64,000 bases of DNA from the sequence record MW650886.1; one strand, 5' to 3'. Positions within the stretch are counted from its first letter, which is position 1. Each line of letters opens with the position of its first letter. This DNA is from Escherichia phage vB_EcoM-ZQ1. The translations under genes were made by a program, and so were the position numbers. Under the pieces are notes generated by a model, which saw nothing but the letters and a program-made list of their open reading frames with translations, ran no database searches and was not told where the DNA came from. Below, piece after piece: positions 1 through 51,569 of this stretch.

Positions 1-502
1 TCGTTAGTAAGTCTACACCCATAACCTTCTGGGACAAAATGTTAACCGCCTCTTGGATGCTCTTCAGGGACATTGTCTCAACAAGTGACGATGCGTCATT
101 ATGCCGGTCGGTTAGGTACATATTGCGCAGATTGTTGTAGTTCGTGCGGTTGATGCACGCAGTGTTCAGTGCTATATTCAGGATATACATCATCTGTTCA
201 ATGGTTATATCCTTTGGTATAGCGTGGATGTAATAGATCGAGCCTTCAAAATAGACGTCTACCAGTTCATCTGGTATCTTGGCCCCACCACCGGCATAAT
301 CTTCGATCATCCTGAACAGAGACTCTGGTTGCTCGCTGGCGATCTTATGCGTAACAGTCGCCGAAAGACCGTCGCCCGGTTTAACAGGCCTGGTGTATTC
401 GGTAAGGAATACATTATGTCCGCCGCCGATGATGTGCTCGGCGAATTTGGAGGATGCCTGAGCAGCGTTCTCCGCATGGTATGAAACGACGACTGTAAAC
501 AT
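1..502 (-). CDS. hypothetical protein, 5' part only; gene runs off the window start
   Basis: Hand-translated open minus-strand frame from ATG at 502-500 (MFTVVVSYHAENAAQ...) with no stop before position 1; TAATG overlap with the stop of the upstream gene. Not in the ORF track because no stop lies in the window. Confidence 0.45.
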   Translation of the reverse strand, partial: MFTVVVSYHAENAAQASSKFAEHIIGGGHNVFLTEYTRPVKPGDGLSATVTHKIASEQPESLFRMIEDYAGGGAKIPDELVDVYFEGSIYYIHAIPKDITIEQMMYILNIALNTACINRTNYNNLRNMYLTDRHNDASSLVETMSLKSIQEAVNILSQKVMGVDLLT

Positions 503-1056
503 TAGAACTCCAGGGTCAGAGGGGTTTCTGCGGACTTGTCGTAATCCGCACCACCAGAAGCACGCAGACGATTGCGATCGTTCTTGCGTTTGTGTGCCAG
601 TATGTAAGTCTCAATGTCGATCTCCATATAAGAACACGCAGACGACAGGAAGAACATGAGAGTCTCAACGCAAGGATCGTTCATGAATTGCCCAAGGCGG
701 TACGTAACATTGCGATGCCCTACAACACCCAAAGCAGATGGGGTGAATTCGCGATTACTAAGGACTTCAAATTCTTCTTCGATCTCACCTTTGGTGCGGT
801 CCACAAGGATGAAGCACAACATGAAGTGTACCACGTCCACCAGCTCATAAACTGCGTTCGTATGGTCAAACCCGATGTCGTTGCCATAGACCTTCCAGTC
901 ACGGGTGGTTTCATCAAGGAACTCTGCCCACTCACGATAGATAGAGTTGATGACTGCGTTCTGACTCCATACATTCTTCCACTCTTCCCCAAAGTAGGCC
1001 ACGTTAGTGGCCTTTTGGAGTTCGAGCAGGCTTTTGATATGTCCTGCTGTGATCAT
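502..1056 (-). CDS. all-alpha NTP pyrophosphatase, dCTPase/dUTPase-like (T4 gp56-like)
   Basis: 184 aa; YELVDVVHFML resembles the ELVDIFHFVL motif recalled for T4 dCTPase; ATGA overlap with the dNMP kinase gene upstream. Confidence 0.5.
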   Translation of the reverse strand: MITAGHIKSLLELQKATNVAYFGEEWKNVWSQNAVINSIYREWAEFLDETTRDWKVYGNDIGFDHTNAVYELVDVVHFMLCFILVDRTKGEIEEEFEVLSNREFTPSALGVVGHRNVTYRLGQFMNDPCVETLMFFLSSACSYMEIDIETYILAHKRKNDRNRLRASGGADYDKSAETPLTLEF

Positions 1057-1622
1057 TTACGTTCTCCGTAGAATTTAACGAACGGTTCCCAACCATCAAA
1101 TGGATTGAGGAATTCGTAGTCCACTTTCATTTGGTCAATGAAAGCCTCTATATCGTCCTCTATGATACCAGCACGGTCGGCCTTTGAAATACGGGTGATA
1201 GGGCATTTCGTACTCAGCGCCCATTCATATTCCTGAGGGGTACGCAGATCACTCACGATATAATGGACGTGGGGGTTCTGCTCTACCAGAGGAAGCTGGA
1301 AGCGCTTGAAGAATGCCAGGAACAGATCGGGTTGTACGTAACGCAAGCCCGTATCGCTGCCTAGATGAAGCCAGATCTGCCGTGGAGTTAAGCCCTTGGG
1401 ATTATCAGGGTGCACGTAAGGAACGTCCTTCACGGCATCCTCTACCTCCGCTGGGAGCCATGGGTAGATGTAGTTGGCTACACGGCGCAGTTCATCAGAG
1501 AAAGAAAGGCGCTGTATGTCCATATCACCCTGTAAGTGGTGGTAACTGATCAGGGACTCCAAACAGAAGTCCTTACCGGAGCGCTTGCGCCCCGTAAAGA
1601 ATTCAAGATTTGGGTACATCAT
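1053..1622 (-). CDS. deoxynucleoside monophosphate kinase (T4 gp1-like)
   Basis: 189 aa; N-terminal FFTGRKRSGKDF P-loop matches T4 gp1 FLSGVKRSGKDT; YIVSDLRTPQEYEWA resembles YIVPDTRQDHEMDAA; start overlaps the stop of the next gene. Confidence 0.7.
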   Translation of the reverse strand: MMYPNLEFFTGRKRSGKDFCLESLISYHHLQGDMDIQRLSFSDELRRVANYIYPWLPAEVEDAVKDVPYVHPDNPKGLTPRQIWLHLGSDTGLRYVQPDLFLAFFKRFQLPLVEQNPHVHYIVSDLRTPQEYEWALSTKCPITRISKADRAGIIEDDIEAFIDQMKVDYEFLNPFDGWEPFVKFYGERK

Positions 1623-2665
1623 ACTACACCTTCCAGGAACTTAGGATCAATGATCTTGCGGTCAACCGGGGAATGGGTGAGCGCGGTGTTCAAGCCATGA
1701 TCCTGAATCAGGTCCAGGTTAATGAGCTTTTCGTTCAGTTTACAGTGCAGACAGTACGCCATCTGTACAATCAGGCCGCGATCCGCATCGTATTCCTTCA
1801 GGTGAGCAACCACAGTTTCCCACGGGCTACCGATATCACAGTGATGAAGCACACCAGTGAACAGATTGCGGATATGGTTCTGGTTGGTCACGTTCGTGAA
1901 GTGAATCATGGAGTTGATGAACCCAGCTTCTACTTTGGTGTCCTTCGTGATCTTTCCCAGCTGCTTCTGGCTGACTTCATTGTTGTAGTAATGAAGATTG
2001 TTAGAGAATAGCTTGTACTGACCGACATCAACATCCAGCACCCGAGCAATCACTTCCTGAAGAATAGAGAACTCAATGAAGTTAATTGAACTCATCCCCC
2101 ACAGAACATCCTGTGAGCGGTTGATGACCGTCAGGTTCAGACGACCTTCAACGATGGCGAACAACAGAGCCAGGTTACACACCATGTCCTTAGTCTTTGC
2201 TTCGCCGCTCTCGCTGAACTTCGCCAGACCAGCATCCGAATCTAGAGCCGGGTCATAGATGGTGAGGTACGCCTGGCGAGTGTTTGGGTTCTTGCGCAGG
2301 CGGTTGATAACGCTATCCAGCTGGCCATGGGCGTACAGACGCGGACCATAAGCAGCTCGCCATGTTACCCCATCATCCGAAAAGTTAGCAGCGCGAGGCA
2401 ATACGCGTGACAGGAACTTTATGTCGTTGCGACCTGACAACACCCAGAAGGTCTCGCCGATGGCAGCGATAGCCGATGAGTTGCGACCTTCAACGGAGAG
2501 CCAGCGGTCACGAATATCGGAAACAGTGATCGTCACACCATCAAGGAAGCGGGTGCTATCAGTATTGATTTCAGCATTACCAGGATCAGATTCGATCCCG
2601 AATTCACGGATAGCCAAGACAGCCTGCTTCAGCATGTCATTGTTGTTAATTGCTTTGATTTCCAT
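1619..2665 (-). CDS. thymidylate synthase family protein (possible deoxypyrimidine hydroxymethylase)
   Basis: 348 aa; core aligns to ThyA (VCNLALLF..RSQDVLWGMSSINFIEFSILQEV..SNNLHYYNNE versus [43 protein letters not shown]) with about 100 extra C-terminal residues; coupled to the flanking kinase genes. Confidence 0.6.
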   Translation of the reverse strand: MEIKAINNNDMLKQAVLAIREFGIESDPGNAEINTDSTRFLDGVTITVSDIRDRWLSVEGRNSSAIAAIGETFWVLSGRNDIKFLSRVLPRAANFSDDGVTWRAAYGPRLYAHGQLDSVINRLRKNPNTRQAYLTIYDPALDSDAGLAKFSESGEAKTKDMVCNLALLFAIVEGRLNLTVINRSQDVLWGMSSINFIEFSILQEVIARVLDVDVGQYKLFSNNLHYYNNEVSQKQLGKITKDTKVEAGFINSMIHFTNVTNQNHIRNLFTGVLHHCDIGSPWETVVAHLKEYDADRGLIVQMAYCLHCKLNEKLINLDLIQDHGLNTALTHSPVDRKIIDPKFLEGVV

Positions 2666-3324
2666 CAGATACTCCCAAAATCACGACAGAGGAATGCCAT
2701 CACAGCCTGGTCTACTGTTAGGCCGTGAGACTTCATCATACCCGCAGCCACCGTAGGGAACAAGTCTTTATGTCGTTGACGATGGTCATGAACTCTCTCC
2801 CACTTCTCGACCACCAGACTTTCATTGAAGTCCACACCGCCGTTACGTGATTTAACACGAGCGATACACGTTTCAAGAGGAGTGTCCATAAAGAGCACAA
2901 CCAATTCACGTGGTGGGCGTGTCAGACGGGGGATCCAAGAACTCAATAATGTGGATGGAATGATACCTTCGAAAATCACATCATATTTCAAGTATTCTGG
3001 TTGGTCAGCAATAGACAACGCGAACAACATCTGCTCAGTGTCCTTCAGGGAATCAACCCCCTTGGACTTCGACTTGTCATATTTACCGATACAGACCACG
3101 TTGAACGAAGGACAGACAGTCAGCATGACCTTGCCGTTATGGGTCACGACATACGCCTGAGGATCCCTCTCCGCCAGCTGAGACGGCACAGTGGATTTAC
3201 CGCTACCATTGGAGCCTTTGACGTAGTAGATTTGCCCTCGTGCTGGGTAGATCCCCTTTACGACGGGTGGTTTAAAGAATGTGTGGACGGGGCGCTTCAT
3301 CAGCCCCTTCAGGGAGTAGGACAT
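2665..3324 (-). CDS. P-loop kinase (nucleotide or DNA-base kinase candidate)
   Basis: Walker A GSNGSGKST; ATG re-set to MSYSLKG because the listed first codon is TTG and an SD (GGAG) precedes the ATG; its stop overlaps the TS-family gene start. Confidence 0.5.
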   Translation of the reverse strand: MSYSLKGLMKRPVHTFFKPPVVKGIYPARGQIYYVKGSNGSGKSTVPSQLAERDPQAYVVTHNGKVMLTVCPSFNVVCIGKYDKSKSKGVDSLKDTEQMLFALSIADQPEYLKYDVIFEGIIPSTLLSSWIPRLTRPPRELVVLFMDTPLETCIARVKSRNGGVDFNESLVVEKWERVHDHRQRHKDLFPTVAAGMMKSHGLTVDQAVMAFLCRDFGSI

Positions 3325-3333
3325 AAACTGCTC

Positions 3334-3368
3334 CAATAAACAAAAGGAGCTGCTATTATAGCAGCCCC
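3334..3368 (-). terminator. intrinsic terminator
   Basis: GCTGCTA-TTA-TAGCAGC hairpin followed on the minus strand by TTTTGTTTATT. Confidence 0.5.
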
Positions 3369-3399
3369 TTCATCTATTGAACAGTTTCTGAACTTAAAT

Positions 3400-4305: not shown

Positions 4306-4334
4306 ATAATATACTGCATTTTCATAGATGTAAA
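4306..4334 (-). promoter_or_regulatory. sigma70-like early promoter (-35 TTTACA, 17 nt, -10 TATTAT)
   Basis: Hexamers read directly on the minus strand upstream of the 3400..4236 gene. Confidence 0.4.
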
Positions 4335-6250: not shown

Positions 6251-6258
6251 TATAAATA
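6251..6258 (+). promoter_or_regulatory. T4-type late promoter motif TATAAATA
   Basis: Exact TATAAATA 34 nt upstream of the start of the 6293 gene; gp55 is encoded in this window. Confidence 0.5.
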
Positions 6259-6292: not shown

Positions 6293-7237
6293 GTGGAAGA
6301 CTATCGCAATTTTATCACACAGATATTACAGCGGGGCTTGTCGCGCAAGAACCGCTTCAGAGTGACCATCCCTCTACCACCAGGGGTCTTTGACTCCAAC
6401 GCCACTCTGGCTAATGACGGAAAGGCGTACAGAACCAATTCATCTTTTGGTGACTTGTTTAAGCAGTCAGCCCGTATTGTAAACGCTTTCTTTGGAGGGA
6501 CAAACCAGACGTCCCGTTCCCTTCAGATGATGTGTATGGTTGCCTCATTGCCAGGGGTTGGTATCGACACCACTCCAATGACAAACAACGGTAATCACAT
6601 CAAGATGCCAAACAACAAGTCCAACGTCGACCTCGACTTGTCATTCTTATTAGCCAATGACTATTATGAGAAGTCTGTGATGGACAAGTGGAAGAGTCTG
6701 ATCTTTGATCCTCACACCACCAAAATGGGATATTACGAAGACTTCGTGACTGACATATGCATTGAACAGCTTGACACCGAAGATCAAGTGGTCCACCGCG
6801 TCTACATCGTCGAGGCTCACCCAATAAATTTCAGTTCTATTGAGCTGGATAAAGGCGCCACAGACCAGTTCAACCAGTACAACATTTCTTTCTCTTACAA
6901 CAAAGTGCTTTCGGAGACAGAATATGAAACACGCAGCCTTTCCAGCGATTTTCTTCCTCTCGGCATTGCTGACGCTCTTACCAGTGGTGACTGGGAAACT
7001 GCGGCCTCAAAAGCTGGACAGCTTTATCGCAAGGTGAAAGAAGGGAACTTCACAGGGGAGGCTCTCCTGGCTTACAAACAGCTTGACCAACTTGTAAACA
7101 ACCTGGCTGGGATAAGCATACAGGACTTCGAGCGCATCTCGGTAGGTATCTCTCGTGACATCATGGGCAACGATAACCTGACGGCGGCGGAGAAGACAAG
7201 CCTGTTGGGAATATTGCAAGACGTGATGGGAAAATAA
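6293..7237 (+). CDS. hypothetical protein, probable late gene
   Basis: 314 aa plus-strand ORF with GTG start and GGAG SD; TATAAATA late-promoter motif 34 nt upstream. Confidence 0.5.
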   Translation: MEDYRNFITQILQRGLSRKNRFRVTIPLPPGVFDSNATLANDGKAYRTNSSFGDLFKQSARIVNAFFGGTNQTSRSLQMMCMVASLPGVGIDTTPMTNNGNHIKMPNNKSNVDLDLSFLLANDYYEKSVMDKWKSLIFDPHTTKMGYYEDFVTDICIEQLDTEDQVVHRVYIVEAHPINFSSIELDKGATDQFNQYNISFSYNKVLSETEYETRSLSSDFLPLGIADALTSGDWETAASKAGQLYRKVKEGNFTGEALLAYKQLDQLVNNLAGISIQDFERISVGISRDIMGNDNLTAAEKTSLLGILQDVMGK

Positions 7238-7263: not shown

Positions 7264-8274
7264 TCAGTTAGACTTGAGATACTGCTCGAATTCGTCAATG
7301 GAAGCCGTGTTTCTGGCATTCGGTTGAGCCTGAGCCTGCGACGGCGCGGCCTGTTGCTGTTTCAGGCTGTCTTGAGCAGTTGGCTGATGTGTAGTCTGGG
7401 TGCTAGGAGCATGAGCCATCGTGGCTGCACCACCTTCAACCAGAGGCTGGTCATCAGGGATTGCCAAAACTTTGCGCAGGCGCTTTTCCAGGGAGTCGTA
7501 GTCTTTGAAGTTAGCCGGATTGAAGAATTCAAACAGGCTGTGCTCGCGAGACCAGACGTCTTCCATATACGCTTCGTCATCACTCAGAGGGGCAGGGTTC
7601 TCCCACACCACCTTACTGAAGTTTGCCACCAGACCTTCCCAGTTCCCAAACTTCTTCTGCTCGCCAAAGAGCTTCAGGTTCAGGTTGGCACCTTCCCACA
7701 GATCGAACGGATCGAATTTAGGGTCGGTTGGGAACTTAGGATTCTGCGCCTGATCCAGGATTTTCTTGATGGCGTTACCAAATTCCAGCAGGAAGACCTT
7801 GCCGTTGTTTTCCGGTACGTTGACATCTTTGATCACCAGGATGTTAGCGTAGTATTTGGTGTCGGGTAGACGTTTCTTCAGGATGTCCTTCAGCTTTTCG
7901 TCGTTCGTTTCTTTCTGCTGTGTCCACAGCGGACGGTCATGGTCGCGCACCGGATCGTCGTTACCGAACGTCTGAGGTGAGTTCTCAATGTACCATCCAC
8001 CAGGTCCCTGGAACTGATGTTTCATGATCATGGCACAAGGGGTGAGGATCTGATCTTTATCGATCGTCCCTTCTTCCTGTGCCTTGAGGTCTACCAGCGG
8101 GACTGGCAGGAAGCGGATGATGTTCTCGGAGATACCATCTTTATTCCAAGTCCATTTCCAGATGCGAGGATCCTTCTGGAAACCGGACTTCTGGCCTTGC
8201 TGTGCAAGACGCGCCTGCATAGCTTCAGTTTGCTGGCCACGGGACGCTTTCAGACGATCGAATAAATTACCCAT
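7264..8274 (-). CDS. 32: single-stranded DNA-binding protein (T4 gp32-like)
   Basis: 336 aa; IRFLPVP, WYIE, YANILVIKD..PENNGKVFLLEFG and WEGANL match T4 gp32 (IRFLPS, WYIE, YIANILVVKD..PENEGKVFKYRFG, WEGANF); acidic Gln/Ala-rich C-terminus. Confidence 0.8.
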   Translation of the reverse strand: MGNLFDRLKASRGQQTEAMQARLAQQGQKSGFQKDPRIWKWTWNKDGISENIIRFLPVPLVDLKAQEEGTIDKDQILTPCAMIMKHQFQGPGGWYIENSPQTFGNDDPVRDHDRPLWTQQKETNDEKLKDILKKRLPDTKYYANILVIKDVNVPENNGKVFLLEFGNAIKKILDQAQNPKFPTDPKFDPFDLWEGANLNLKLFGEQKKFGNWEGLVANFSKVVWENPAPLSDDEAYMEDVWSREHSLFEFFNPANFKDYDSLEKRLRKVLAIPDDQPLVEGGAATMAHAPSTQTTHQPTAQDSLKQQQAAPSQAQAQPNARNTASIDEFEQYLKSN

Positions 8275-8342
8275 TTCTTGTTTTCCTATGTTTCCGCCCC
8301 TCAGGGCTATTCTGTTACATGTATTTTCAGTTTTCTACAAAG

Positions 8343-8360
8343 CGGGGTAATTATACCCCG
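8343..8360 (-). promoter_or_regulatory. 5' UTR hairpin of gene 32 (candidate translational operator structure)
   Basis: CGGGGTA-ATTA-TACCCCG hairpin followed on the mRNA by about 35 nt of AU-rich sequence before the SD. Confidence 0.4.
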
Positions 8361-8373
8361 ATCTTATATTGAA

Positions 8374-8613
8374 TTAACCTTTAAGCACTTGATTTGCTGG
8401 GTCAATTTCAATAATGTCGAACACGTCCGAAAACGTCTTCTTACCTTCGTCGTGCGTGTGATACTCAACGACATATGAGCGACCATCAGGGGTAACGTAA
8501 CGAATACGATCCGTCTGGTCGGCATTCTCGTTCAGACTACCCACACGCCAGCGCATGGAGCCAGGAAGGAACTCGGAGGCTTTCATTGCGCTGTAAATTG
8601 ATTCTTTGCTCAT
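8374..8613 (-). CDS. hypothetical protein
   Basis: 79 aa minus-strand ORF in the gene array. Confidence 0.4.
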   Translation of the reverse strand: MSKESIYSAMKASEFLPGSMRWRVGSLNENADQTDRIRYVTPDGRSYVVEYHTHDEGKKTFSDVFDIIEIDPANQVLKG

Positions 8614-8620
8614 AATAGAC

Positions 8621-8866
8621 CTACACTAATTTCTTGGACTTTAGCGCGTCTTTGATCAGGCGCGCATCGGAGCACTCAGCTGTCAATCGTGACAACAATG
8701 GTGCTGTAATCATCTTTTTGACTTTGGTCTCGTCTATGTCGTTCTCTTCACAGACAGATGCCAGAGTCTCAAGGATACTATCCTTGGTTTGGGCGGCGCG
8801 TAGTAGGACGATTTCAGAAAATAATTCTGGTGTCATCACAAGCGCTGGCTGTTTTTCGTCAGACAT
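8621..8866 (-). CDS. hypothetical protein
   Basis: 81 aa minus-strand ORF. Confidence 0.4.
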   Translation of the reverse strand: MSDEKQPALVMTPELFSEIVLLRAAQTKDSILETLASVCEENDIDETKVKKMITAPLLSRLTAECSDARLIKDALKSKKLV

Positions 8867-35685: not shown

Positions 35686-37400
35686 ACCTCAAACACGGCA
35701 TCAGTGAACCAAGCGGGGAAGAACTCTGGGTTGCGCATCATCAGTGATTCAAAAGAAGAATCAAGGATGTACGTCGCAGCCCAGTCATTCACGCCCCTGA
35801 CCGAACGCCCACACATCTGAACGATACGCAGTACCGCCATCCTGAAGTACGCCGATGGGTCCACACTGTTGACGTGGGCCACCAGAGGATCACCAAGGTA
35901 ATCGTATGGCACCTTGATCAAGATCTGAAATCGACTATAATCGCCTTTGAAGTCATACCCCTCTTCCATGGCCGGACTGGCGATGACACAAGGCGTCTTC
36001 GTCCTGAACGCGTGTTCCATGATGTCCATCAGAGCCTTACGAGTACGAGGAACGTGAATCATATTCCGGTACTTACTGAACTTTTGTAGAGCCAGGGCGC
36101 GGTCATAACTGACTGTGTGAATGATGCCAGACTGTCCAGGGTGGAACGCGATAATTTCATCCACGTATTCAGCCAGCTTCTTCATCTCGTAGTCACCCAT
36201 GTTCGCTGTCATCTTCATGATGGGCATGTAGTTGACTTTCCGGTTCTCAATCGGGATAGGGTTGCCGATCTGTATCTTGTGGTACTCACCCTCGCGGATA
36301 CCCAGTGACCGGGCGTACGAGTCAATCCCACAAATGGTAGCCGACATGTGAACGTGGTAGTCACCCTTGCGGAACAGGCCGAACTGGGATACATCAGAGG
36401 CGATGACAGGCTTGAACTGAATCATACCCTTGTCCTTCTCCTGTACGATGAAAGTGCTGGCGTTGGTCTGCCCCATGATACCGCAGTAGTCACTGAGGTT
36501 GTGAAGAGTATCAATAATATCAGACAGCTTCATCACCTGGGCTTCAGTCAGGCGCTCGTCCTCTACCAGTTCCTCAAGAGTTTCCAACAGGGCTTCAACC
36601 TTGCCGTGCAGTTCATCAAATATCGCATGCATCTCACCAGACAGGGAATACAGCTTGCCCAATTCATAGTTCTCTGTGCGGATGATGATATCCTTGATGG
36701 TCTCCACGATAGACACTCCCTCGGGGATCGTAAGCAACCCTTCCACAGCCTTTATGTTGTATTCCATGATAGTATGCTCTAGGAGCGTAGAGGGCATTTT
36801 ATGACACTCGTCAAGGATCAGCATATCGGCGCGGTTTTCCGGCTTCATACAGATCGTCGTGCACATCTCCACCATCATGGCGGCGTTGGTGCAGCGCAGG
36901 GAGGAGACGTCGGTCCACTGTCGACGCGCCTGAACATATGGGCAACGATTCTTACTACAGTGGCCATCACGGCATGCCATACGGCACTGAATGGCGTTGT
37001 AGTATAGGTCGGGACTGATGTGGCAACGATAGTTCTTCTTGCCCTTCAGGATGTCTATCGCCACGGCTTTCTCTGCTGCATACTGATCCTGTAAACCTTT
37101 GGTCGGCGTCGTGATAGACGTGCGGAACTGACCATACGGGTTGTGCTCAAGAACCAAATGGCGAAGCACGTTATGGATGGTAGTGCCGATGAGGGATTTA
37201 CCTACACCAGTCGGAGCCTCGATGATCACGTGTTTGAATTTCTTATTCACAAGGGCATCAATGGCTTCAACGATGCATTCCATCTGGCCGGGGTTGGCGG
37301 TGTCATACGGGAAGAACTCAGTGGCAAGAGACTTGATGCGGTCTATGCTGACTGGTCCGACGCCGTCAAGCGCCTTGGTATATTGGTTGAATGCTGTCAC
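35682..37400 (-). CDS. DinG/XPD-like (Rad3 family) DNA helicase with Fe-S cluster cysteines
   Basis: Walker A PTGVGKS, DECH box (LILDECHKM), four-Cys cluster CRMACRDGHCSKNRC; GTG start with strong SD AGGAGGAAG. Confidence 0.7.
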   Translation of the reverse strand: MTAFNQYTKALDGVGPVSIDRIKSLATEFFPYDTANPGQMECIVEAIDALVNKKFKHVIIEAPTGVGKSLIGTTIHNVLRHLVLEHNPYGQFRTSITTPTKGLQDQYAAEKAVAIDILKGKKNYRCHISPDLYYNAIQCRMACRDGHCSKNRCPYVQARRQWTDVSSLRCTNAAMMVEMCTTICMKPENRADMLILDECHKMPSTLLEHTIMEYNIKAVEGLLTIPEGVSIVETIKDIIIRTENYELGKLYSLSGEMHAIFDELHGKVEALLETLEELVEDERLTEAQVMKLSDIIDTLHNLSDYCGIMGQTNASTFIVQEKDKGMIQFKPVIASDVSQFGLFRKGDYHVHMSATICGIDSYARSLGIREGEYHKIQIGNPIPIENRKVNYMPIMKMTANMGDYEMKKLAEYVDEIIAFHPGQSGIIHTVSYDRALALQKFSKYRNMIHVPRTRKALMDIMEHAFRTKTPCVIASPAMEEGYDFKGDYSRFQILIKVPYDYLGDPLVAHVNSVDPSAYFRMAVLRIVQMCGRSVRGVNDWAATYILDSSFESLMMRNPEFFPAWFTDAVFEV

Positions 37401-37449
37401 TTTCTTCCTCCTATGGGATTCGCCTATAGTTTACCCGATCCCCAAGAAC

Positions 37450-37478
37450 GAAAAAGCCGGAGCATTGTACTCCGGCTT
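37450..37478 (-). terminator. intrinsic terminator after the HU gene
   Basis: AGCCGGAG-CATTGTA-CTCCGGCT hairpin followed by TTTTTC. Confidence 0.55.
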
Positions 37479-37529
37479 TCTCTTTTGCCATGCCCTGTAA
37501 TGCAGAGCCTGGCCGCGCGTCAGATAGAA

Positions 37530-37808
37530 TTACTTGCCGTTGGCAGCGTTCTTCAGACCTTCGCCCACTTTGAATTTCACAACGTTTTTCGCCGCGATCT
37601 GAATGGTCTGGCCATTCAGAGGGTTGCGACCTTCACGCGCTTCTTGGTGTTTCACTTCGAACGCACCGAAGCCGACCAGCTGTACAGATGCGCCTGCAGC
37701 AACTGCAGTTTTAACACCGTCGATAAAGGATGCCACTACTTTCTCCGCTTCGCCTTTGGTGATGTTCTGGGTCGAAGCAATGTGGGCAACAAATTCAGTA
37801 CGATTCAT
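37530..37808 (-). CDS. HU/IHF-family DNA-binding protein
   Basis: 92 aa; GFGAFEVKHQEAREGRNPLNGQTIQIAAKNVVKFKVG is typical of HU. Confidence 0.8.
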   Translation of the reverse strand: MNRTEFVAHIASTQNITKGEAEKVVASFIDGVKTAVAAGASVQLVGFGAFEVKHQEAREGRNPLNGQTIQIAAKNVVKFKVGEGLKNAANGK

Positions 37809-37933
37809 CTGGATTTCTCCGTTGAGTTAATGTTTACTTTCATGTTCACTACAAGAGGACTACATCTTACCTAACAAAACATATTGAATAAAGCGAAATT
37901 ATTAGCCTTTCACCACGATTACAGTCTTTGTGC

Positions 37934-38374
37934 TCATATTTGCTCCGTTTGTTTCTCAACGCCCAGTGCGGCGGCATAGATACCACGAGCCATGCGATCA
38001 TCACAAAATCCATGCGTGAATAATCCAGCAATGGCATCAAGGCGTTCCTGTGTTGGTGTGACAGGCACAGACACCGTTTGAACTTCAGTCTTTTCGGTGC
38101 CTTCCGGCTTCATCAAGACCTCCATTTCTTGACGGCTAACAATAATGGTTTCTACCTTATCTTCATCGATCAACATTTCGTTCAGAAGATCGTATCCCAA
38201 CACTTGTGTATCGCCGATATATGTCTTCGCGTTCAGTTGTGCTTCGATACTTAACACCCTCTGAGCTGTAAGACCACCAGAGGAGAACGGTACTGGATAG
38301 AAGGCGGAACGCACTTGGGCACACCCATTTACGCTGTAACGAACCAGCAAGACATCACACCATACGCCAGCCAT
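37934..38374 (-). CDS. hypothetical protein
   Basis: 146 aa; GGAGGTG SD. Confidence 0.45.
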   Translation of the reverse strand: MAGVWCDVLLVRYSVNGCAQVRSAFYPVPFSSGGLTAQRVLSIEAQLNAKTYIGDTQVLGYDLLNEMLIDEDKVETIIVSRQEMEVLMKPEGTEKTEVQTVSVPVTPTQERLDAIAGLFTHGFCDDRMARGIYAAALGVEKQTEQI

Positions 38375-38375
38375 A

Positions 38376-39038
38376 TTACACCTCCACCGCGTGAGACTTC
38401 AGGAGTTCATCAATCTCTTTCTGTCCCATGTATGAGAACGGGGTGCGCTGGTAGAACGCCCAGAGTACTAACTGGACAACAGCACGGGAACGGGTTTCGG
38501 CCGTCATCACCAGGCCACTGAAATGAGGAGACTCAGCTGTCCATTGTATATCTTCGCCCAGGTCTTGATTACAGGTCACCGAGATGCGGAACTTGTTGCA
38601 CAGATTGTCGACTTCTTTGTACGCATCGGTAGACACACGAAGTTGTTCCGCATGTACCCACGGAGTTGTGATGATTCTTTCACCCAACGTCTTTTCTGAA
38701 ACGAACCAATCAATAGATTGGGTAAACTCGCTGAAATGGTCGATACGATAAATGCAGTCTCCCCCTTCCATAGAACGCATGGCATGATAGCGAGCGTCGA
38801 TTTCGTTGTTGTGCATCGCGTTGAAGTCGATGAACACGCGACGCGCCAGCACAACATCTTCTGGTTGAAGTGCCAGGAAATCGTTCAGGCGGCTATAATG
38901 GAGGATATTGGAACCGTCGTGGCCACGTGTGCAATATGCGTAATGGCTACCGATACGGGCGTGGGCAATATAAGACAACGGGGCGAAGAATAATCCGTCA
39001 GGATCAGGACCGACGATAATAGAATAAAGTTTTTCCAT
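38376..39038 (-). CDS. hypothetical protein
   Basis: Start re-set to MEKLYSII, preceded by the conserved ACTATATCATG start context. Confidence 0.45.
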   Translation of the reverse strand: MEKLYSIIVGPDPDGLFFAPLSYIAHARIGSHYAYCTRGHDGSNILHYSRLNDFLALQPEDVVLARRVFIDFNAMHNNEIDARYHAMRSMEGGDCIYRIDHFSEFTQSIDWFVSEKTLGERIITTPWVHAEQLRVSTDAYKEVDNLCNKFRISVTCNQDLGEDIQWTAESPHFSGLVMTAETRSRAVVQLVLWAFYQRTPFSYMGQKEIDELLKSHAVEV

Positions 39039-39094
39039 GATATAGTCACTCAAATGAAAGGGCAGCTTTATGATAAGCCGCCCGAGGTTATTGA

Positions 39095-39964
39095 TTATTG
39101 GAAATCGCCAACATACATGTTCAGCTTGTCGTCCCAATTCAGAACGACACGGATCGTTCCGGTATCTTCTGGGAAGGTCAGTTTGTCGCACATGGCGCGA
39201 TTAACATAAGTCCCACTCTGGTTCACGTTGTAGTCCTTGCCTTGCATGATACCGAAACGCTTGAAGTCGCGAGTGACCATCATGTTCAGAGTTGTCCAAG
39301 GGATTGCATCGCGCAGGGCTTTGCACAGGACGATCTTGCCATCCGACCTGAACGACACAAACAGCTCGTTGGCGACACGACGGCGAGTAGGCGGTTCAAG
39401 TTCACGCAGGGAAATGAATTGTGAATTCTTTACCTTTTCTGCCAGCGCCTGTACTTCTGTTGGATCCGGCTTGAACGGCTCCACTGAAGAGTCAGACTTC
39501 ATCACAACGTCACCCTTGCGCTTCTCAACCAATTGCTCCACAGCCTTTTGACTCACGGGCGGGAGGTATTTGGACTCAGGAACAACCGCTGGCTTGATGA
39601 CAGGGCTTGCATCTGGTTTCGCCTTTGGGGTACTCCGAGCCGCACGCAGCTTTTCCTGGGCTTCCAGAATGCGCTCTTGACGAGAAAGTGGAGCCTTTGG
39701 GGTGATCTTCGTACTGAAGTCAGAAACGCCGACCCAGTCACCCTGGTCATTACGCTTGGCGACCAGAGTCAGTTTGTGAATGATACCCTGAAGTTTGCTC
39801 TCACGTAAGTTGTCGGCATACCAGAACTTCGCGCCCATCTCGAACTTCTCGGCGAAGATCACGCGAGCGTCTTCGTGTACCAACATAACTTTGGCTGCGT
39901 TGGGGGCAAAAGCCTTATTCTTTTCGATAATCGCCGCAGCGATTGTTTTGGTCAGGAGCATCAC
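39095..39964 (-). CDS. hypothetical protein
   Basis: 289 aa ORF. Confidence 0.5.
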   Translation of the reverse strand: MMLLTKTIAAAIIEKNKAFAPNAAKVMLVHEDARVIFAEKFEMGAKFWYADNLRESKLQGIIHKLTLVAKRNDQGDWVGVSDFSTKITPKAPLSRQERILEAQEKLRAARSTPKAKPDASPVIKPAVVPESKYLPPVSQKAVEQLVEKRKGDVVMKSDSSVEPFKPDPTEVQALAEKVKNSQFISLRELEPPTRRRVANELFVSFRSDGKIVLCKALRDAIPWTTLNMMVTRDFKRFGIMQGKDYNVNQSGTYVNRAMCDKLTFPEDTGTIRVVLNWDDKLNMYVGDFQ

Positions 39965-40000
39965 GGTGTATTCCTTCAGTTCACAATGTAGGGCTAAATT

Positions 40001-40330
40001 TTAACCCGAAACTTTATTTTGAAATCCGACAAAGTCCTGGGCAATCCCCCGGCAATACATCAGGTCTTTCTTCGTTTGTGGACTGTTGTCAGCCGCAGTC
40101 AGCATCATGGGAAGGTCCAGCGCATTCTCTATCTGATCAACACTGAACAGATCAAGGCGCTTCAGCTCTCCCTCGAAGTCAGACAGTAGGATAGATGTGT
40201 CTTTGTCATCTGGGTGGAACTGCTGATACGTCTCCATCCATGCCACACATGTGTTCAGTTTGGACGGTGGCGCGGCGTTTACACACCCGGCTATCAGTAC
40301 CAACAAGAGCAGGATTTTACATTTCATCAC
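40001..40330 (-). CDS. lipoprotein
   Basis: N-terminal MMKCKILLLLVLIAGC lipobox; ATGA-coupled to the upstream gene. Confidence 0.5.
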   Translation of the reverse strand: MMKCKILLLLVLIAGCVNAAPPSKLNTCVAWMETYQQFHPDDKDTSILLSDFEGELKRLDLFSVDQIENALDLPMMLTAADNSPQTKKDLMYCRGIAQDFVGFQNKVSG

Positions 40331-41013
40331 TCGTTCTCCTTCATCATATTGTCGCAGTCAACACGAGTCTGCTGGAGTTCGCGCGACATGCGGGGATCAT
40401 CAAGGTTCACGCTCAGATTCGTGGCCAGGTCTTTCAGACCGTTCTGAACCCTGTCTTCAAAGTAATAATCGTTCTCAACCAGCCAGGCTCTGAGACCAAG
40501 AGCGCGGGTGCGCCATTCCTTCTTCAGGACGCGATCAGAGGTCTGCGTAGCGCTGTATTCGAATACTTTGACGCACTGGTTGCCATCGTTGATGAGGTTC
40601 AGGTGGCGGCGACCAACCTGCACACCCTTCTGTAATGCCGGAGAAGGGAGCGAACGGCACTGTCTTACGGTCATTCGGCCTTGGGTGCCCATTCGGCCAG
40701 TCATGATTAAATCGCCAGCCTCCATGCCTCCACGGTTAAATTCGTCGTCATTGAGGTAGCCCTTGAGGTTATAGGCTCCCTGTTTGTAACGGTTGAACTC
40801 AATTCCGGCATTGACGACAGCAGTGGAGACGTTGCCTGTGTTCCAGAGTTCAGCGAAGTTCTCTATGGAACCAGACTTGTCGATGGCAACCGCCTGGGAG
40901 AACCCAGCACAATAGGAAAGGTCGGACCACAGTTTATCACCTGTGGAGTTCAGCTTGGCAGCGGCGGGTAATGCCAGACCAGCCAGCACAACCCCGAGGA
41001 TTAAACGTTTCAT
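40327..41013 (-). CDS. secreted protein (signal peptide)
   Basis: Start re-set to MKRLILGVVLAGLALPAAA with AGGAGA SD. Confidence 0.5.
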   Translation of the reverse strand: MKRLILGVVLAGLALPAAAKLNSTGDKLWSDLSYCAGFSQAVAIDKSGSIENFAELWNTGNVSTAVVNAGIEFNRYKQGAYNLKGYLNDDEFNRGGMEAGDLIMTGRMGTQGRMTVRQCRSLPSPALQKGVQVGRRHLNLINDGNQCVKVFEYSATQTSDRVLKKEWRTRALGLRAWLVENDYYFEDRVQNGLKDLATNLSVNLDDPRMSRELQQTRVDCDNMMKENE

Positions 41014-49407: not shown

Positions 49408-50628
49408 TTATTCAGGTTTCTTCAAACGGTCCAGCAAATTGACGGAACCACGTTTGAGCACGACTTCATCACAGCGCTTTTTGTATTCCCCACCGCCGTC
49501 ATATCCAACCTTCCCGCGCGGTTTTTTACCTTGCTGTATGGCCTCTACACAACGAGTATATTTCGACAATTCACAAAAGTGGTTTTCTAATTGTTGAACA
49601 TTCATACACTGATCCCAAGGCTCTTCCGCAGACCAAAATTCTTCCCTGTTATACCCAAGAGGGCCATAAACCGCGTCCTGATTGTCCCGCAACCAGAAGA
49701 TGCATTCTTCATGCGTCATGCCATCTTTGTCCTGGAACATCAGGTCGATCCCTGCGCGACAGCCTGGTCCAGCAACCGTGAAGTGGTTCTCACTGAAAGG
49801 ATATTCAGGAATGTAAGTGAAGTCAACCCATATCTGATAGGCCAGGAATGGGCCAAGCCCTTCGATGTCGTCATACATGCGCTGGTATACTTCCAAAGGA
49901 GTACCAAGGCGCAGCAGGTCATGGAAATAATTTGGATACTTGTTGACGAATGCCTTCAGGGAGCGGATGACACGCATTGGCATGTACGGTTCCCAACCTT
50001 CGATGGTGTAGAAGTCCGGCTCTGCTTCGGCTATCGCCTTGGCTTCTTTATAATCCATGTTCTGGGTTGAACCGTCTTTACAGATCAGATTCACCATCAT
50101 CCCACCGAAGCGCTGCTCCTTGTGGTTGACAACCATCTCAGGGAAAGCCAGGCATTGCTTCAGGCCGCCCGTGTTGAAGGCATTGGTGAATACCTTACCA
50201 CCGTCGGCCTCGAACTTCTGAAGTCGTTCGCGGGTTGCATCGAGGTTGATCTCGGCGAATTCTTTGATCGTCATCGCGCCGCCGATAGCCTGGATTGGAT
50301 CCCAGAGGTTGAACATGCGGAACAACACGCAGTTGAACATCTTGTCGGCCATACCCAGAGCATCATTCTTGGCGATGTTGTTGATCAGGTTGAGAGACTG
50401 CCTGTCGTGCTCTCTCCGGACGTTACAGAATTTAACCTGGCGTAGTATGGGATTATCAGTCCAAGGAGCAGGAAGGCGCTGGACGTCCTTCTTGACGTGG
50501 ATCTGATAACGATCGCGCATCCATTCGTAAGACAGGCGGGTATGGGTCGGGCTGAGAACCGGTTTGGCCGACTTTATCTTTTCTTCACGGACACCGCAGT
50601 ACGGGACGTCCAGGGCTTTATCTTTCAT
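49408..50628 (-). CDS. hypothetical protein (406 aa)
   Basis: AAGAGGA SD; terminator hairpin just upstream. Confidence 0.55.
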   Translation of the reverse strand: MKDKALDVPYCGVREEKIKSAKPVLSPTHTRLSYEWMRDRYQIHVKKDVQRLPAPWTDNPILRQVKFCNVRREHDRQSLNLINNIAKNDALGMADKMFNCVLFRMFNLWDPIQAIGGAMTIKEFAEINLDATRERLQKFEADGGKVFTNAFNTGGLKQCLAFPEMVVNHKEQRFGGMMVNLICKDGSTQNMDYKEAKAIAEAEPDFYTIEGWEPYMPMRVIRSLKAFVNKYPNYFHDLLRLGTPLEVYQRMYDDIEGLGPFLAYQIWVDFTYIPEYPFSENHFTVAGPGCRAGIDLMFQDKDGMTHEECIFWLRDNQDAVYGPLGYNREEFWSAEEPWDQCMNVQQLENHFCELSKYTRCVEAIQQGKKPRGKVGYDGGGEYKKRCDEVVLKRGSVNLLDRLKKPE

Positions 50629-50696: not shown

Positions 50697-51569
50697 TTAA
50701 TCGATACGGGTCAGTTGGGTGATAGATGATTGCACTGGGCTGGCCACATAGATACGGACGTTGGCTTTCCATTCACCCCAGATCAACGGTAGAGTTGGGA
50801 AGTTGTCTTCATTGAAAACAAACACGGGAATGTAGCTCTCGACTGTTTCGCCAGAGAACGCCTGGAAGCCCATCTTGGTGTATCCCATGATCTCGTCAAT
50901 AAAATCGAACGGCGCGTAGGCAACACCAGCATGTTCGTTGCATCCGAGTCGACCTGGGGTAGCCGTGCCTGTCAGAATGATTTCGGTGATCTGGCGCTTA
51001 GGCTCGGTGGTCAACATATCAGAGAAGTCAGGCTCTTTGAAGGTTGCCATGTTCTTCAGGAACTTGCCAGCCGGGTATTCTTTACCGTCGACGGTGATGG
51101 TGTCTACTACTTTGATGCACGCCTGAGGGAATTCCCCTTCGATGCGCAGACTTTCGCGTGGGAAGCCTTTGTTGTAGTAGTAATCCAGTGCTGGCACAAC
51201 TTCACCTTCATTACGGATGAACTTGCTCATGTTAGAGGCATACACGCGCTGTAGGCATTCGTCACCGTCGAAACCAGCAATATGAGCCACGCCGTCGTTG
51301 ACTGTTGTGATGTCACCCTGGGCATCCATGATCTGGCGCATAATGTCTTTGATGTCGACAACAACGGGTTCTTTCAGGACTCGCGGAGATGCAGTGAACT
51401 CAATTTTCACCTCGTGGTCGAAATACGCCGCTTCCAGCAGTTCACGGGTTTCTTCCAGCACCAGTTTCGCCTGATTGCGGATCTTACCAAAGTCGGGCGA
51501 TGTGACGTCGCCCTTTGCATTACCGAAAGCCAGATTCAGATTCACGTTCTTGGAAAATGTAGTTGTCAT
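50697..51569 (-). CDS. hypothetical protein (290 aa)
   Basis: GGAG SD; directly downstream of regA, where T4 carries gene 43. Confidence 0.5.
   Translation of the reverse strand: MTTTFSKNVNLNLAFGNAKGDVTSPDFGKIRNQAKLVLEETRELLEAAYFDHEVKIEFTASPRVLKEPVVVDIKDIMRQIMDAQGDITTVNDGVAHIAGFDGDECLQRVYASNMSKFIRNEGEVVPALDYYYNKGFPRESLRIEGEFPQACIKVVDTITVDGKEYPAGKFLKNMATFKEPDFSDMLTTEPKRQITEIILTGTATPGRLGCNEHAGVAYAPFDFIDEIMGYTKMGFQAFSGETVESYIPVFVFNEDNFPTLPLIWGEWKANVRIYVASPVQSSITQLTRID

Follow-up and report, generated by a model that had tools for sequence, protein, structure and literature searches.

Organization of the operon

At the start of the 64,000-nucleotide stretch of DNA from Escherichia phage vB_EcoM-ZQ1 (record MW650886.1), which was analysed as a whole and is called the window here, a minus-strand operon encodes a P-loop kinase, a thymidylate synthase (TS) homologue, a deoxynucleoside monophosphate (dNMP) kinase, a nucleoside triphosphate (NTP) pyrophosphatase and an ACT-like protein (Table 1). 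We give a probability of about 0.9 to the reading that this operon is the pre-replicative half, together with the first post-replicative step, of the thymidine hypermodification pathway of ViI-type Ackermannviridae, in which 5-hydroxymethyldeoxyuridine (5-hmdU) is an intermediate.

The four consecutive minus-strand genes described in an earlier, sequence-only reading of this DNA are present in both the list of open reading frames (ORFs) and the sequence itself, and a fifth gene which that reading missed is chained downstream of them. The span it gave, 502-3336, is right at its first coordinate; position 3336 turned out to be an in-frame TTG, upstream of an ATG at 3324 that has GGAG 7 nt before it and that the records of relatives give as the start. 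Overlapping stop and start codons join the genes as described, with ATGA at the junctions of the TS homologue with the dNMP kinase and of the dNMP kinase with the pyrophosphatase, and TAATG at 502 between the pyrophosphatase and the ACT-like gene; the junction between kinase and TS homologue is TGATG, a 1-base overlap, and not TAATG. A GGAG or AGGTG motif precedes the ATG by 6-11 nt at every junction. We infer translational coupling along the chain from these overlaps; together with the separate Shine-Dalgarno motif at each of them, they point to expression of all five genes in a coupled and balanced way.

Table 1. Coordinates of the operon genes and of associated features in the window
Feature	Position	Strand	Remarks
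5-hmdU DNA kinase (5-HMUDK, kinase 1)	2665..3324	-	219 amino acids (aa) from ATG; orthologue of ViI gp67 / Vi01_061c
Deoxyuridine monophosphate (dUMP) hydroxymethylase, TS fold (predicted)	1619..2665	-	348 aa; orthologue of ViI Vi01_060c
dNMP kinase, T4 gp1 family	1053..1622	-	189 aa; orthologue of ViI "dnk" Vi01_059c
All-alpha dimeric-dUTPase-family NTP pyrophosphatase, T4 gp56 family	502..1056	-	184 aa; orthologue of ViI Vi01_058c
Phage ACT-like domain protein, fifth chained gene	1..502	-	3' end beyond window edge; orthologue of ViI Vi01_057c
Terminator-like hairpin, 13 pairs then TTTTGTTT	3343..3371	-	19 nt upstream of kinase ATG; pattern match only
Sigma70-like promoter site, 10/12	4306..4334	-	Upstream of 278-aa acidic protein (phrog_3905) preceding kinase
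ViI gp160 orthologue (aGPT-Pplase clade 1 / "HMUDK helical domain")	49408..50628	-	406 aa; tblastn 82% over 407 aa; PF18723 E 2e-80; phrog_2396
MazG-like nucleotide pyrophosphatase	50697..51569	-	Beside gp160 orthologue; 60% identical to ViI Vi01_131c; phrog_2144 E 3.5e-133

Since no sigma70-like or other promoter-like site was found between the terminator-like hairpin and the kinase ATG, the operon is probably read through from upstream, and its transcription would start either at the sigma70-like site before the acidic protein gene or at an unrecognised middle promoter. Near the operon there is no copy of the T4-type late promoter TATAAATA. Elsewhere in the window, an exact copy of this motif lies at 6251-6258 on the plus strand, 35 nt upstream of a gp54-like baseplate gene (6293-7237, plus strand), and the motif occurs three times in all compared to 0.83 expected by chance.

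A megablast search with the first 8 kb of the window matched 272 phage records, nearly all from Enterobacterales hosts, and the highest nucleotide identities were to the E. coli phages RPN242 and YX22 (98.5%), AV101 (97%) and the Shigella phage Ag3 (92%). YX22 encodes a protein 100% identical to the 348-aa TS homologue. The records opened for AV101, RPN242 and ViI (Vi01) all belong to the Ackermannviridae, and by nucleotide similarity the source of the window is an Agtrevirus-like member of this family.

The 5-hmdU DNA kinase and the post-replicative genes

The kinase matches the Pfam family PF18748 (HMUDK_HMUD1) with an E value of 1.5e-108 and 361.2 bits against a cut-off of 27, covering positions 1-195 of the 196 in the profile, and is 88% identical to ViI gp67 (YP_004327432) over 219 aa without a gap. 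The P-loop GSNGSGKST, already noticed in the sequence-only reading, lies at residues 37-45 of the translation as the Walker A motif. In vitro, ViI gp67 phosphorylates 5-hmdU in DNA, giving from hmdU DNA the same 418-u phosphorylated nucleotide as M6 gp54 (PMC8989533). Profile searches with the kinase gave no match to an ordinary thymidylate kinase (Tmk) beyond a weak one to the thymidylate-kinase family phrog_761 (E 1e-6), and a sequence search of the PDB gave no meaningful relative. The genomic context of the kinase comprises the overlapping hydroxymethylase gene and, further along the window, the clade-1 aGPT-Pplase gene. The protein is a full-length member of the 5-HMUDK family, to which its own activity is assigned by orthology.

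The name "terminase small subunit" that this kinase carries in phrog_800 and in several RefSeq records (Vi01, SKML-39, MK-13) has also been given to the ViI gene Vi01_061c (8204-8866 in segment L002 of the ViI record). The phrog_800 profile has 511 positions, of which the kinase and the helical-domain protein match separate regions, and the true small terminase gene lies elsewhere, as Vi01_162c in ViI and RPN242_gp152 in RPN242. The label is an annotation error worth correcting.

In ViI, the kinase converts 5-hmdU in DNA to the phosphorylated form 5-PmdU, gp247 transfers serine onto it via the side-chain oxygen, and the pyridoxal phosphate (PLP) enzyme gp226 decarboxylates the product to 5-(2-aminoethoxy)methyl-dU (5-NeOmdU) (PMC8989533). 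A further protein, gp160, is one of the five ViI proteins in the 5-NeOmdU reconstitution, although its individual role was not established (PMC5889632). All five reconstitution genes have orthologues here, that of gp160 in the window and the others in the 98.5%-identical RPN242, where identities are 91% for gp226, 82% for gp243 (PF18747) and 88% for gp247 (PF18724, amino acid:DNA transferase); the gp226 orthologue stays below threshold for PALP, at 30.4 bits against a cut-off of 35. The MazG-like protein encoded beside the gp160 orthologue has no Pfam match and is possibly a pool-sanitising enzyme linked to the pathway.

How the two kinases share the work can be read in another way. ViI-type genomes keep two kinase and two aGPT-Pplase paralogues, phage SP10 fuses a kinase-1 domain to a clade-1 domain (Table 3 in PMC5889632), phrog_800 spans both of these domains, and kinase 2 is encoded three genes away from the serine transferase gp247. 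The fusion in SP10 and the closeness of kinase 2 to the serine transferase point to two functional pairs with different jobs, in which the gp67-type kinase and the clade-1 protein would serve the conversion of 5-hmdU to thymine or the choice of the modified context, and gp243 and gp247 would make 5-NeOmdU; we regard this as doubtful, together with a smaller variant in which the ACT-like protein is an allosteric regulator. Decidedly less probable is the specific form in which the pathway is the same up to 5-PmdU and the gp67-type kinase and gp160-type protein then act in a separate branch, returning the remaining 5-hmdU to thymine or handling a context-specific subset, while gp243 and gp247 produce 5-NeOmdU. 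In the literature neither what gp160 does nor how 5-hmdU is turned into T is explained, and the gp160 orthologue is conserved at 82%. However, hmdU DNA is a substrate of either kinase in vitro, one kinase is enough for M6 to make its modification, and the clade-1 proteins are connected to thymine formation by gene context only. The preferred assignment keeps the window kinase as the enzyme for the first post-replicative step towards 5-NeOmdU.

The thymidylate synthase homologue

The 348-aa protein belongs to the TS superfamily at the level of PF00303 (E 1e-15), but none of the seven NCBIfam ThyA equivalog models comes near its cut-off (the highest score is 57.8 bits, against a cut-off of 327 for that model and a range of 108-427 for the set), and by these profiles it is not a canonical thymidylate synthase ThyA. 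It is 77% identical to the ViI enzyme Vi01_060c. Among PHROG families it matches phrog_3676 at E 4e-183, the SPO1-like phrog_5131 at E 8e-59 and phrog_160, which holds T4 gp42 and TS, at E 1.5e-25. In the PDB, the best relative by sequence is the CMP hydroxymethylase MilA (E 1.4e-17), compared to 3.5e-9 for the best TS.

Comparison of active sites showed that the nucleophile Cys163 is kept, and that C163, R183, S184, D186, H225, Y227, E71 and Y106 correspond to C146, R166, S167, D169, H207, Y209, E58 and Y94 of ThyA. The ThyA Trp80/Trp83 segment and the C-terminus are replaced, which gives a sequence hint on hydration versus hydride transfer. Asn177 of ThyA reads O4 and N3-H of uracil. In HMMER alignments, Asn195 of the phage protein pairs with this residue, whereas MilA has Asp there. 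An alignment of 16 sequences likewise places Asn in the ViI-like, M6-like and SPO1-like enzymes and in ThyA, and Asp in MilA, with Asp179 of T4 gp42 one column off; moreover, Asn195 is invariant in 62 homologues. Since Asn195 is of the uracil type and the PHROG scores lie nearer to the SPO1-like family than to the gp42/TS family, dUMP is strongly favoured by the sequence as the substrate. The sequence-only reading, which had offered both a cytosine and a thymidine modification, held that neither the substrate of this enzyme nor the target of the kinase could be decided from sequence; this was too pessimistic, as profile searches and the specificity residue decide both, in favour of 5-hmdU and thymidine hypermodification.

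The cytosine option would be a T4-style pathway to hydroxymethyldeoxycytidine (hm-dC), which would make a dCMP hydroxymethylase of the TS homologue and a dCTPase of the pyrophosphatase, have the dNMP kinase act on hm-dCMP and leave the extra kinase unrelated. The pyrophosphatase and dNMP kinase do share PHROG families with T4 gp56 and gp1, and MilA, the closest relative of the TS homologue with a solved structure, is a cytosine-nucleotide hydroxymethylase. This option is nonetheless very improbable: the invariant Asn195 is that of ThyA and of the SPO1- and M6-type enzymes and not the Asp of T4 gp42 and MilA, identity to gp42 is 22% over 145 aa (E 5e-5) and the gp42 PHROG is outscored by the SPO1-like one, the adjoining kinase is a 5-hmdU DNA kinase, the modified base in relatives is T and not C, and a relative has a dCMP deaminase gene, whose product drains dCMP to dUMP.

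Equally improbable is an ordinary supply of dTTP by a thymidylate synthase that has diverged but still works, with a thymidylate kinase and a dUTPase beside it, in a phage with unmodified DNA, as many GenBank and RefSeq records imply by naming the genes "thymidylate synthase" and "dUTP diphosphatase", and as the retained TS residues for catalysis and dUMP binding would allow: the ThyA equivalog scores fall 6- to 25-fold under the cut-offs, a tblastn search with E. coli ThyA misses the gene at E<=1, the ThyA C-terminus gives way to a MilA-like helical extension, the kinase matches 5-HMUDK at E 1e-108 compared to 1e-6 for the thymidylate-kinase PHROG, and relatives carry 5-NeOmdU. The pairing of a canonical ThyA with an ordinary Tmk, which the sequence-only reading had named as the finding that would speak against a modified pyrimidine, is absent on both counts. 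We have rejected the hm-dC and plain dTMP-synthesis readings on these grounds, and retain the predicted assignment as a dUMP hydroxymethylase.

The C-terminal extension of about 100 residues was correctly noted in the sequence-only reading. An AlphaFold2 model built on a 62-sequence alignment (predicted local distance difference test, pLDDT, 93.8; predicted template modelling score, pTM, 0.93) has the TS core ending at about residue 235-250 and about 100 further helical residues, with five helices from about 262 to 338. A Foldseek search of the PDB with this model aligned MilA over about 350 columns, including the C-terminal helices, with template modelling (TM) scores of 0.71/0.77, and canonical thymidylate synthases over just 240-275 columns with TM scores of about 0.52-0.55. 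The idea that the extension is a novel domain was rejected, because MilA matches the whole length of the model and lengths of 351-383 aa also occur among the SPO1-like and M6-like enzymes; the MilA match and these lengths make the extension a shared trait of the hydroxymethylase branch. By sequence, the Ackermannviridae version of it is confined to that family, where 272 records match at least 80% of the protein.

Members of this hydroxymethylase-like TS branch are also found in bacterial records, with Asn195 invariant and lengths of 330-590 aa (P0058, P0063, P0066, P0077). The records are from Klebsiella pneumoniae, Rhizobium rhizogenes, Paenarthrobacter and Herbiconiux, and some of the members lie on megabase contigs.

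The dNMP kinase, the pyrophosphatase and the ACT-like protein

The sequence-only labels "gp1-like" and "gp56-like" hold at the level of remote families. The 189-aa protein matches phrog_139 at E 1.2e-47, and T4 gp1 belongs to the same PHROG (E 1.8e-65); it is 91% identical to ViI Vi01_059c, and its motif G11-RKRSGKD-18 and the GVKRSGKD of T4 gp1 share a GxKRSGKD loop. No Pfam match and no meaningful PDB relative by sequence were found for it. The 184-aa protein matches PF08761 (dUTPase_2) with 36.9 bits against a cut-off of 22.9 (E 6e-9) and phrog_173 at E 5.8e-40, the family to which T4 gp56 also belongs (E 5.8e-39). In the PDB it comes closest to the Campylobacter dimeric dUTPase 1w2y (E 1.3e-3), and its identity to ViI Vi01_058c is 61%. 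These Pfam and PHROG assignments, like those of the kinase to PF18748 and of the TS homologue to PF00303, greatly exceed what chance would give. Since direct BLASTP against T4 gp56, gp1 and gp42 gives motif-level matches only, membership in the gp1 and gp56 families is shown through the shared PHROG profiles.

The ACT-like protein is 55% identical to ViI Vi01_057c over window positions 502-5 (tblastn), and the ViI gene occupies the same position. A full-length orthologue from AV101 matches PF24021 (ACT_phage) at E 2.6e-79, and a sequence search of the PDB gave no meaningful relative of the ACT-like protein. ACT domains usually bind small-molecule effectors, and for this reason the protein, being chained to the operon, could act as an allosteric regulator of the hmdU nucleotide branch.

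Proposed pathway

The pre-replicative logic of hypermodifying phages has been described as follows: a dUMP hydroxymethylase homologous to TS makes 5-hmdUMP from dUMP that is supplied by a phage dCMP deaminase, phage dTTPase and dTMPase deplete the thymidine nucleotides, a phage dNMP kinase acts on 5-hmdUMP, and host nucleoside diphosphate (NDP) kinase and phage polymerase follow (PMC8989533). Besides the operon genes, RPN242 has genes for a dCMP deaminase and for a protein that carries the annotation 5'(3')-deoxyribonucleotidase and matches the NT5C family, and tblastn found no canonical thyA in the window or in the parts of RPN242 that were searched, about 8 kb of RPN242 structural genes not being covered.

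Six steps may be proposed from these genes. First, the pyrophosphatase would hydrolyse dUTP, and possibly dTTP or dCTP, to the monophosphate, feeding dUMP and keeping unwanted triphosphates from the DNA. Second, the TS-fold enzyme is predicted from homology and its active-site residues to add, via Cys163, the methylene of CH2-tetrahydrofolate to C5 of dUMP, with hydration instead of reduction, giving 5-hmdUMP. Third, the gp1-family dNMP kinase would form 5-hmdUDP, from which the host NDP kinase would make 5-hmdUTP. Fourth, as the literature on ViI and SPO1 leads one to expect, the phage DNA polymerase would place 5-hmdU opposite A. Fifth, the P-loop kinase would use ATP to phosphorylate the hydroxymethyl group of 5-hmdU in DNA to 5-PmdU, a reaction shown biochemically for the 88%-identical ViI gp67. 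Sixth, a gp247-type serine:DNA transferase and a gp226-type PLP decarboxylase would convert 5-PmdU by way of O-serinyl-T to 5-NeOmdU, the modification that in relatives replaces about 16-40% of T and blocks many restriction enzymes.

Several points weigh against this assignment. The loop carrying Asn195 is one residue longer than in ThyA, so that its equivalence depends on the alignment, and the dUMP hydroxymethylase role rests on SPO1-type homology (about 34% identity to the CampHawk enzyme) and on this residue; we found in the literature no biochemical test of a ViI-clade TS homologue. Family membership does not fix the substrate of the pyrophosphatase (dUTP, dCTP or dTTP) or the specificity of the dNMP kinase for hmdUMP. 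ViI has two 5-hmdU kinases, gp67 and gp243, both of them active in vitro, so that the specific in vivo role of the paralogue in the window does not follow from its activity. The gp226, gp243 and gp247 orthologues lie outside the 64-kb window, 5-NeOmdU is put forward as the end product by orthology, and the literature yielded no nucleoside chemistry for this phage or any member of the Aglimvirinae.

The DNA polymerase gene of RPN242 is split, gp175 and gp178 together covering the single ViI polymerase (36440-40622 in segment L006 of the RPN242 record), in a region outside the window. The two halves are about 1.1 kb apart with two small ORFs between them, probably an inserted mobile element.

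Comparison with known systems

The closest known system is that of the Salmonella phage ViI, with which the operon is collinear over Vi01_057c-061c (ACT-like protein, NTP pyrophosphatase, dNMP kinase, TS homologue, kinase), with uvsX downstream in both. In the Vi01 record these genes are annotated as unknown (057c), NTP pyrophosphohydrolase (058c), dnk (059c), thyA (060c) and orf00067, that is gp67 (061c). Identities across the five genes range from 55 to 91% and the Pfam families are the same, the pyrophosphatase (61%) and the ACT-like protein (55%) being the most diverged. ViI is a Kuttervirus, whereas the phage studied here is Aglimvirinae/Agtrevirus-like.

The pre-replicative logic is also the same as in the SPO1/SP8 system of Bacillus phages, which comprises the dUMP hydroxymethylase gp29, a dNMP kinase, a dUTPase/dTTPase and a dCMP deaminase. 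SPO1-type enzymes resemble the TS homologue in the phrog_5131 match, the identity to the CampHawk enzyme, the same specificity Asn and a C-terminal extension. However, SP8 DNA is fully 5-hmdU and SPO1 is not among the hypermodifying phages (the SPO1 and SP8 genomes were not searched for a 5-HMUDK or an amino acid:DNA transferase).

In T4, the hm-dC module consists of the dCMP hydroxymethylase gp42, the dCTPase/dUTPase gp56, the dNMP kinase gp1 and alpha- and beta-glucosyltransferases. It has in common with the present operon a pool-sanitising pyrophosphatase, a TS-fold hydroxymethylase and a dNMP kinase followed by post-replicative decoration, as well as the gp1 and gp56 PHROG families. It differs in the base, uracil here (Asn195) and cytosine in T4 (Asp), and in the decoration, which is phosphorylation and amino-acid transfer here and glucosylation in T4, and pairwise similarity of the proteins is motif-level only. 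As for gene order, uvsX and the gp41 helicase follow downstream of the hydroxymethylase in both phages: T4 has 42, beta-gt, segA, uvsX, 40, 41, and the present phage has HMUDK, TS homologue, dNMP kinase, pyrophosphatase, ACT-like gene, uvsX, one small gene and a gp41-like gene. In both, the neighbour of the hydroxymethylase gene codes for the enzyme with which decoration of the hydroxymethyl group in DNA begins.

MilA of mildiomycin biosynthesis (PDB 5b6d, 5jnh) is the best solved relative of the TS homologue by both sequence and fold, and shares the helical extension that canonical TS lacks. On the other hand, its substrate is a cytosine ribonucleotide, its base-reading residue is Asp, and its identity to the phage protein is about 20%.

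Place in the literature and implications

The module has already been published for the family and the genus (Lee 2018, 2021; SW16-7 2023), so that its detection here is a correct rediscovery of a system that is ordinary for Ackermannviridae. Lee (2018) listed Ag3, SKML-39 and LIMEstone as ViI-like 5-HMUDK phages, predicted 5-NeOmdU for the whole group, and noted that 5-HMUDK co-associates with a dUMP hydroxymethyltransferase (PMC5889632). The paper on the Agtrevirus SW16-7 (2023) describes the same genes (PMC10458263), and a 2024 review finds them conserved across the Ackermannviridae. The modification itself has been measured in ViI, CBA120, CBA6 and Vibrio phage 1.255.O at about 40% of T (PMC5889632), and a 2026 preprint gives 16% of T in a Taipeivirus (bioRxiv 10.64898/2026.05.19.726188).

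The present phage is an additional source of 5-hmdU-pathway enzymes, with little import beyond correct annotation: the database labels "thymidylate synthase" and "terminase small subunit" are wrong for the TS homologue and the kinase. It also touches questions that concern the whole family, namely what the second kinase and the clade-1 aGPT-Pplase do, by which route 5-hmdU is turned into T and what job the ACT-like protein has. Judged from its genes, the virion DNA is very probably substituted in part with 5-NeOmdU; such DNA would resist many restriction enzymes and may behave differently in sequencing.

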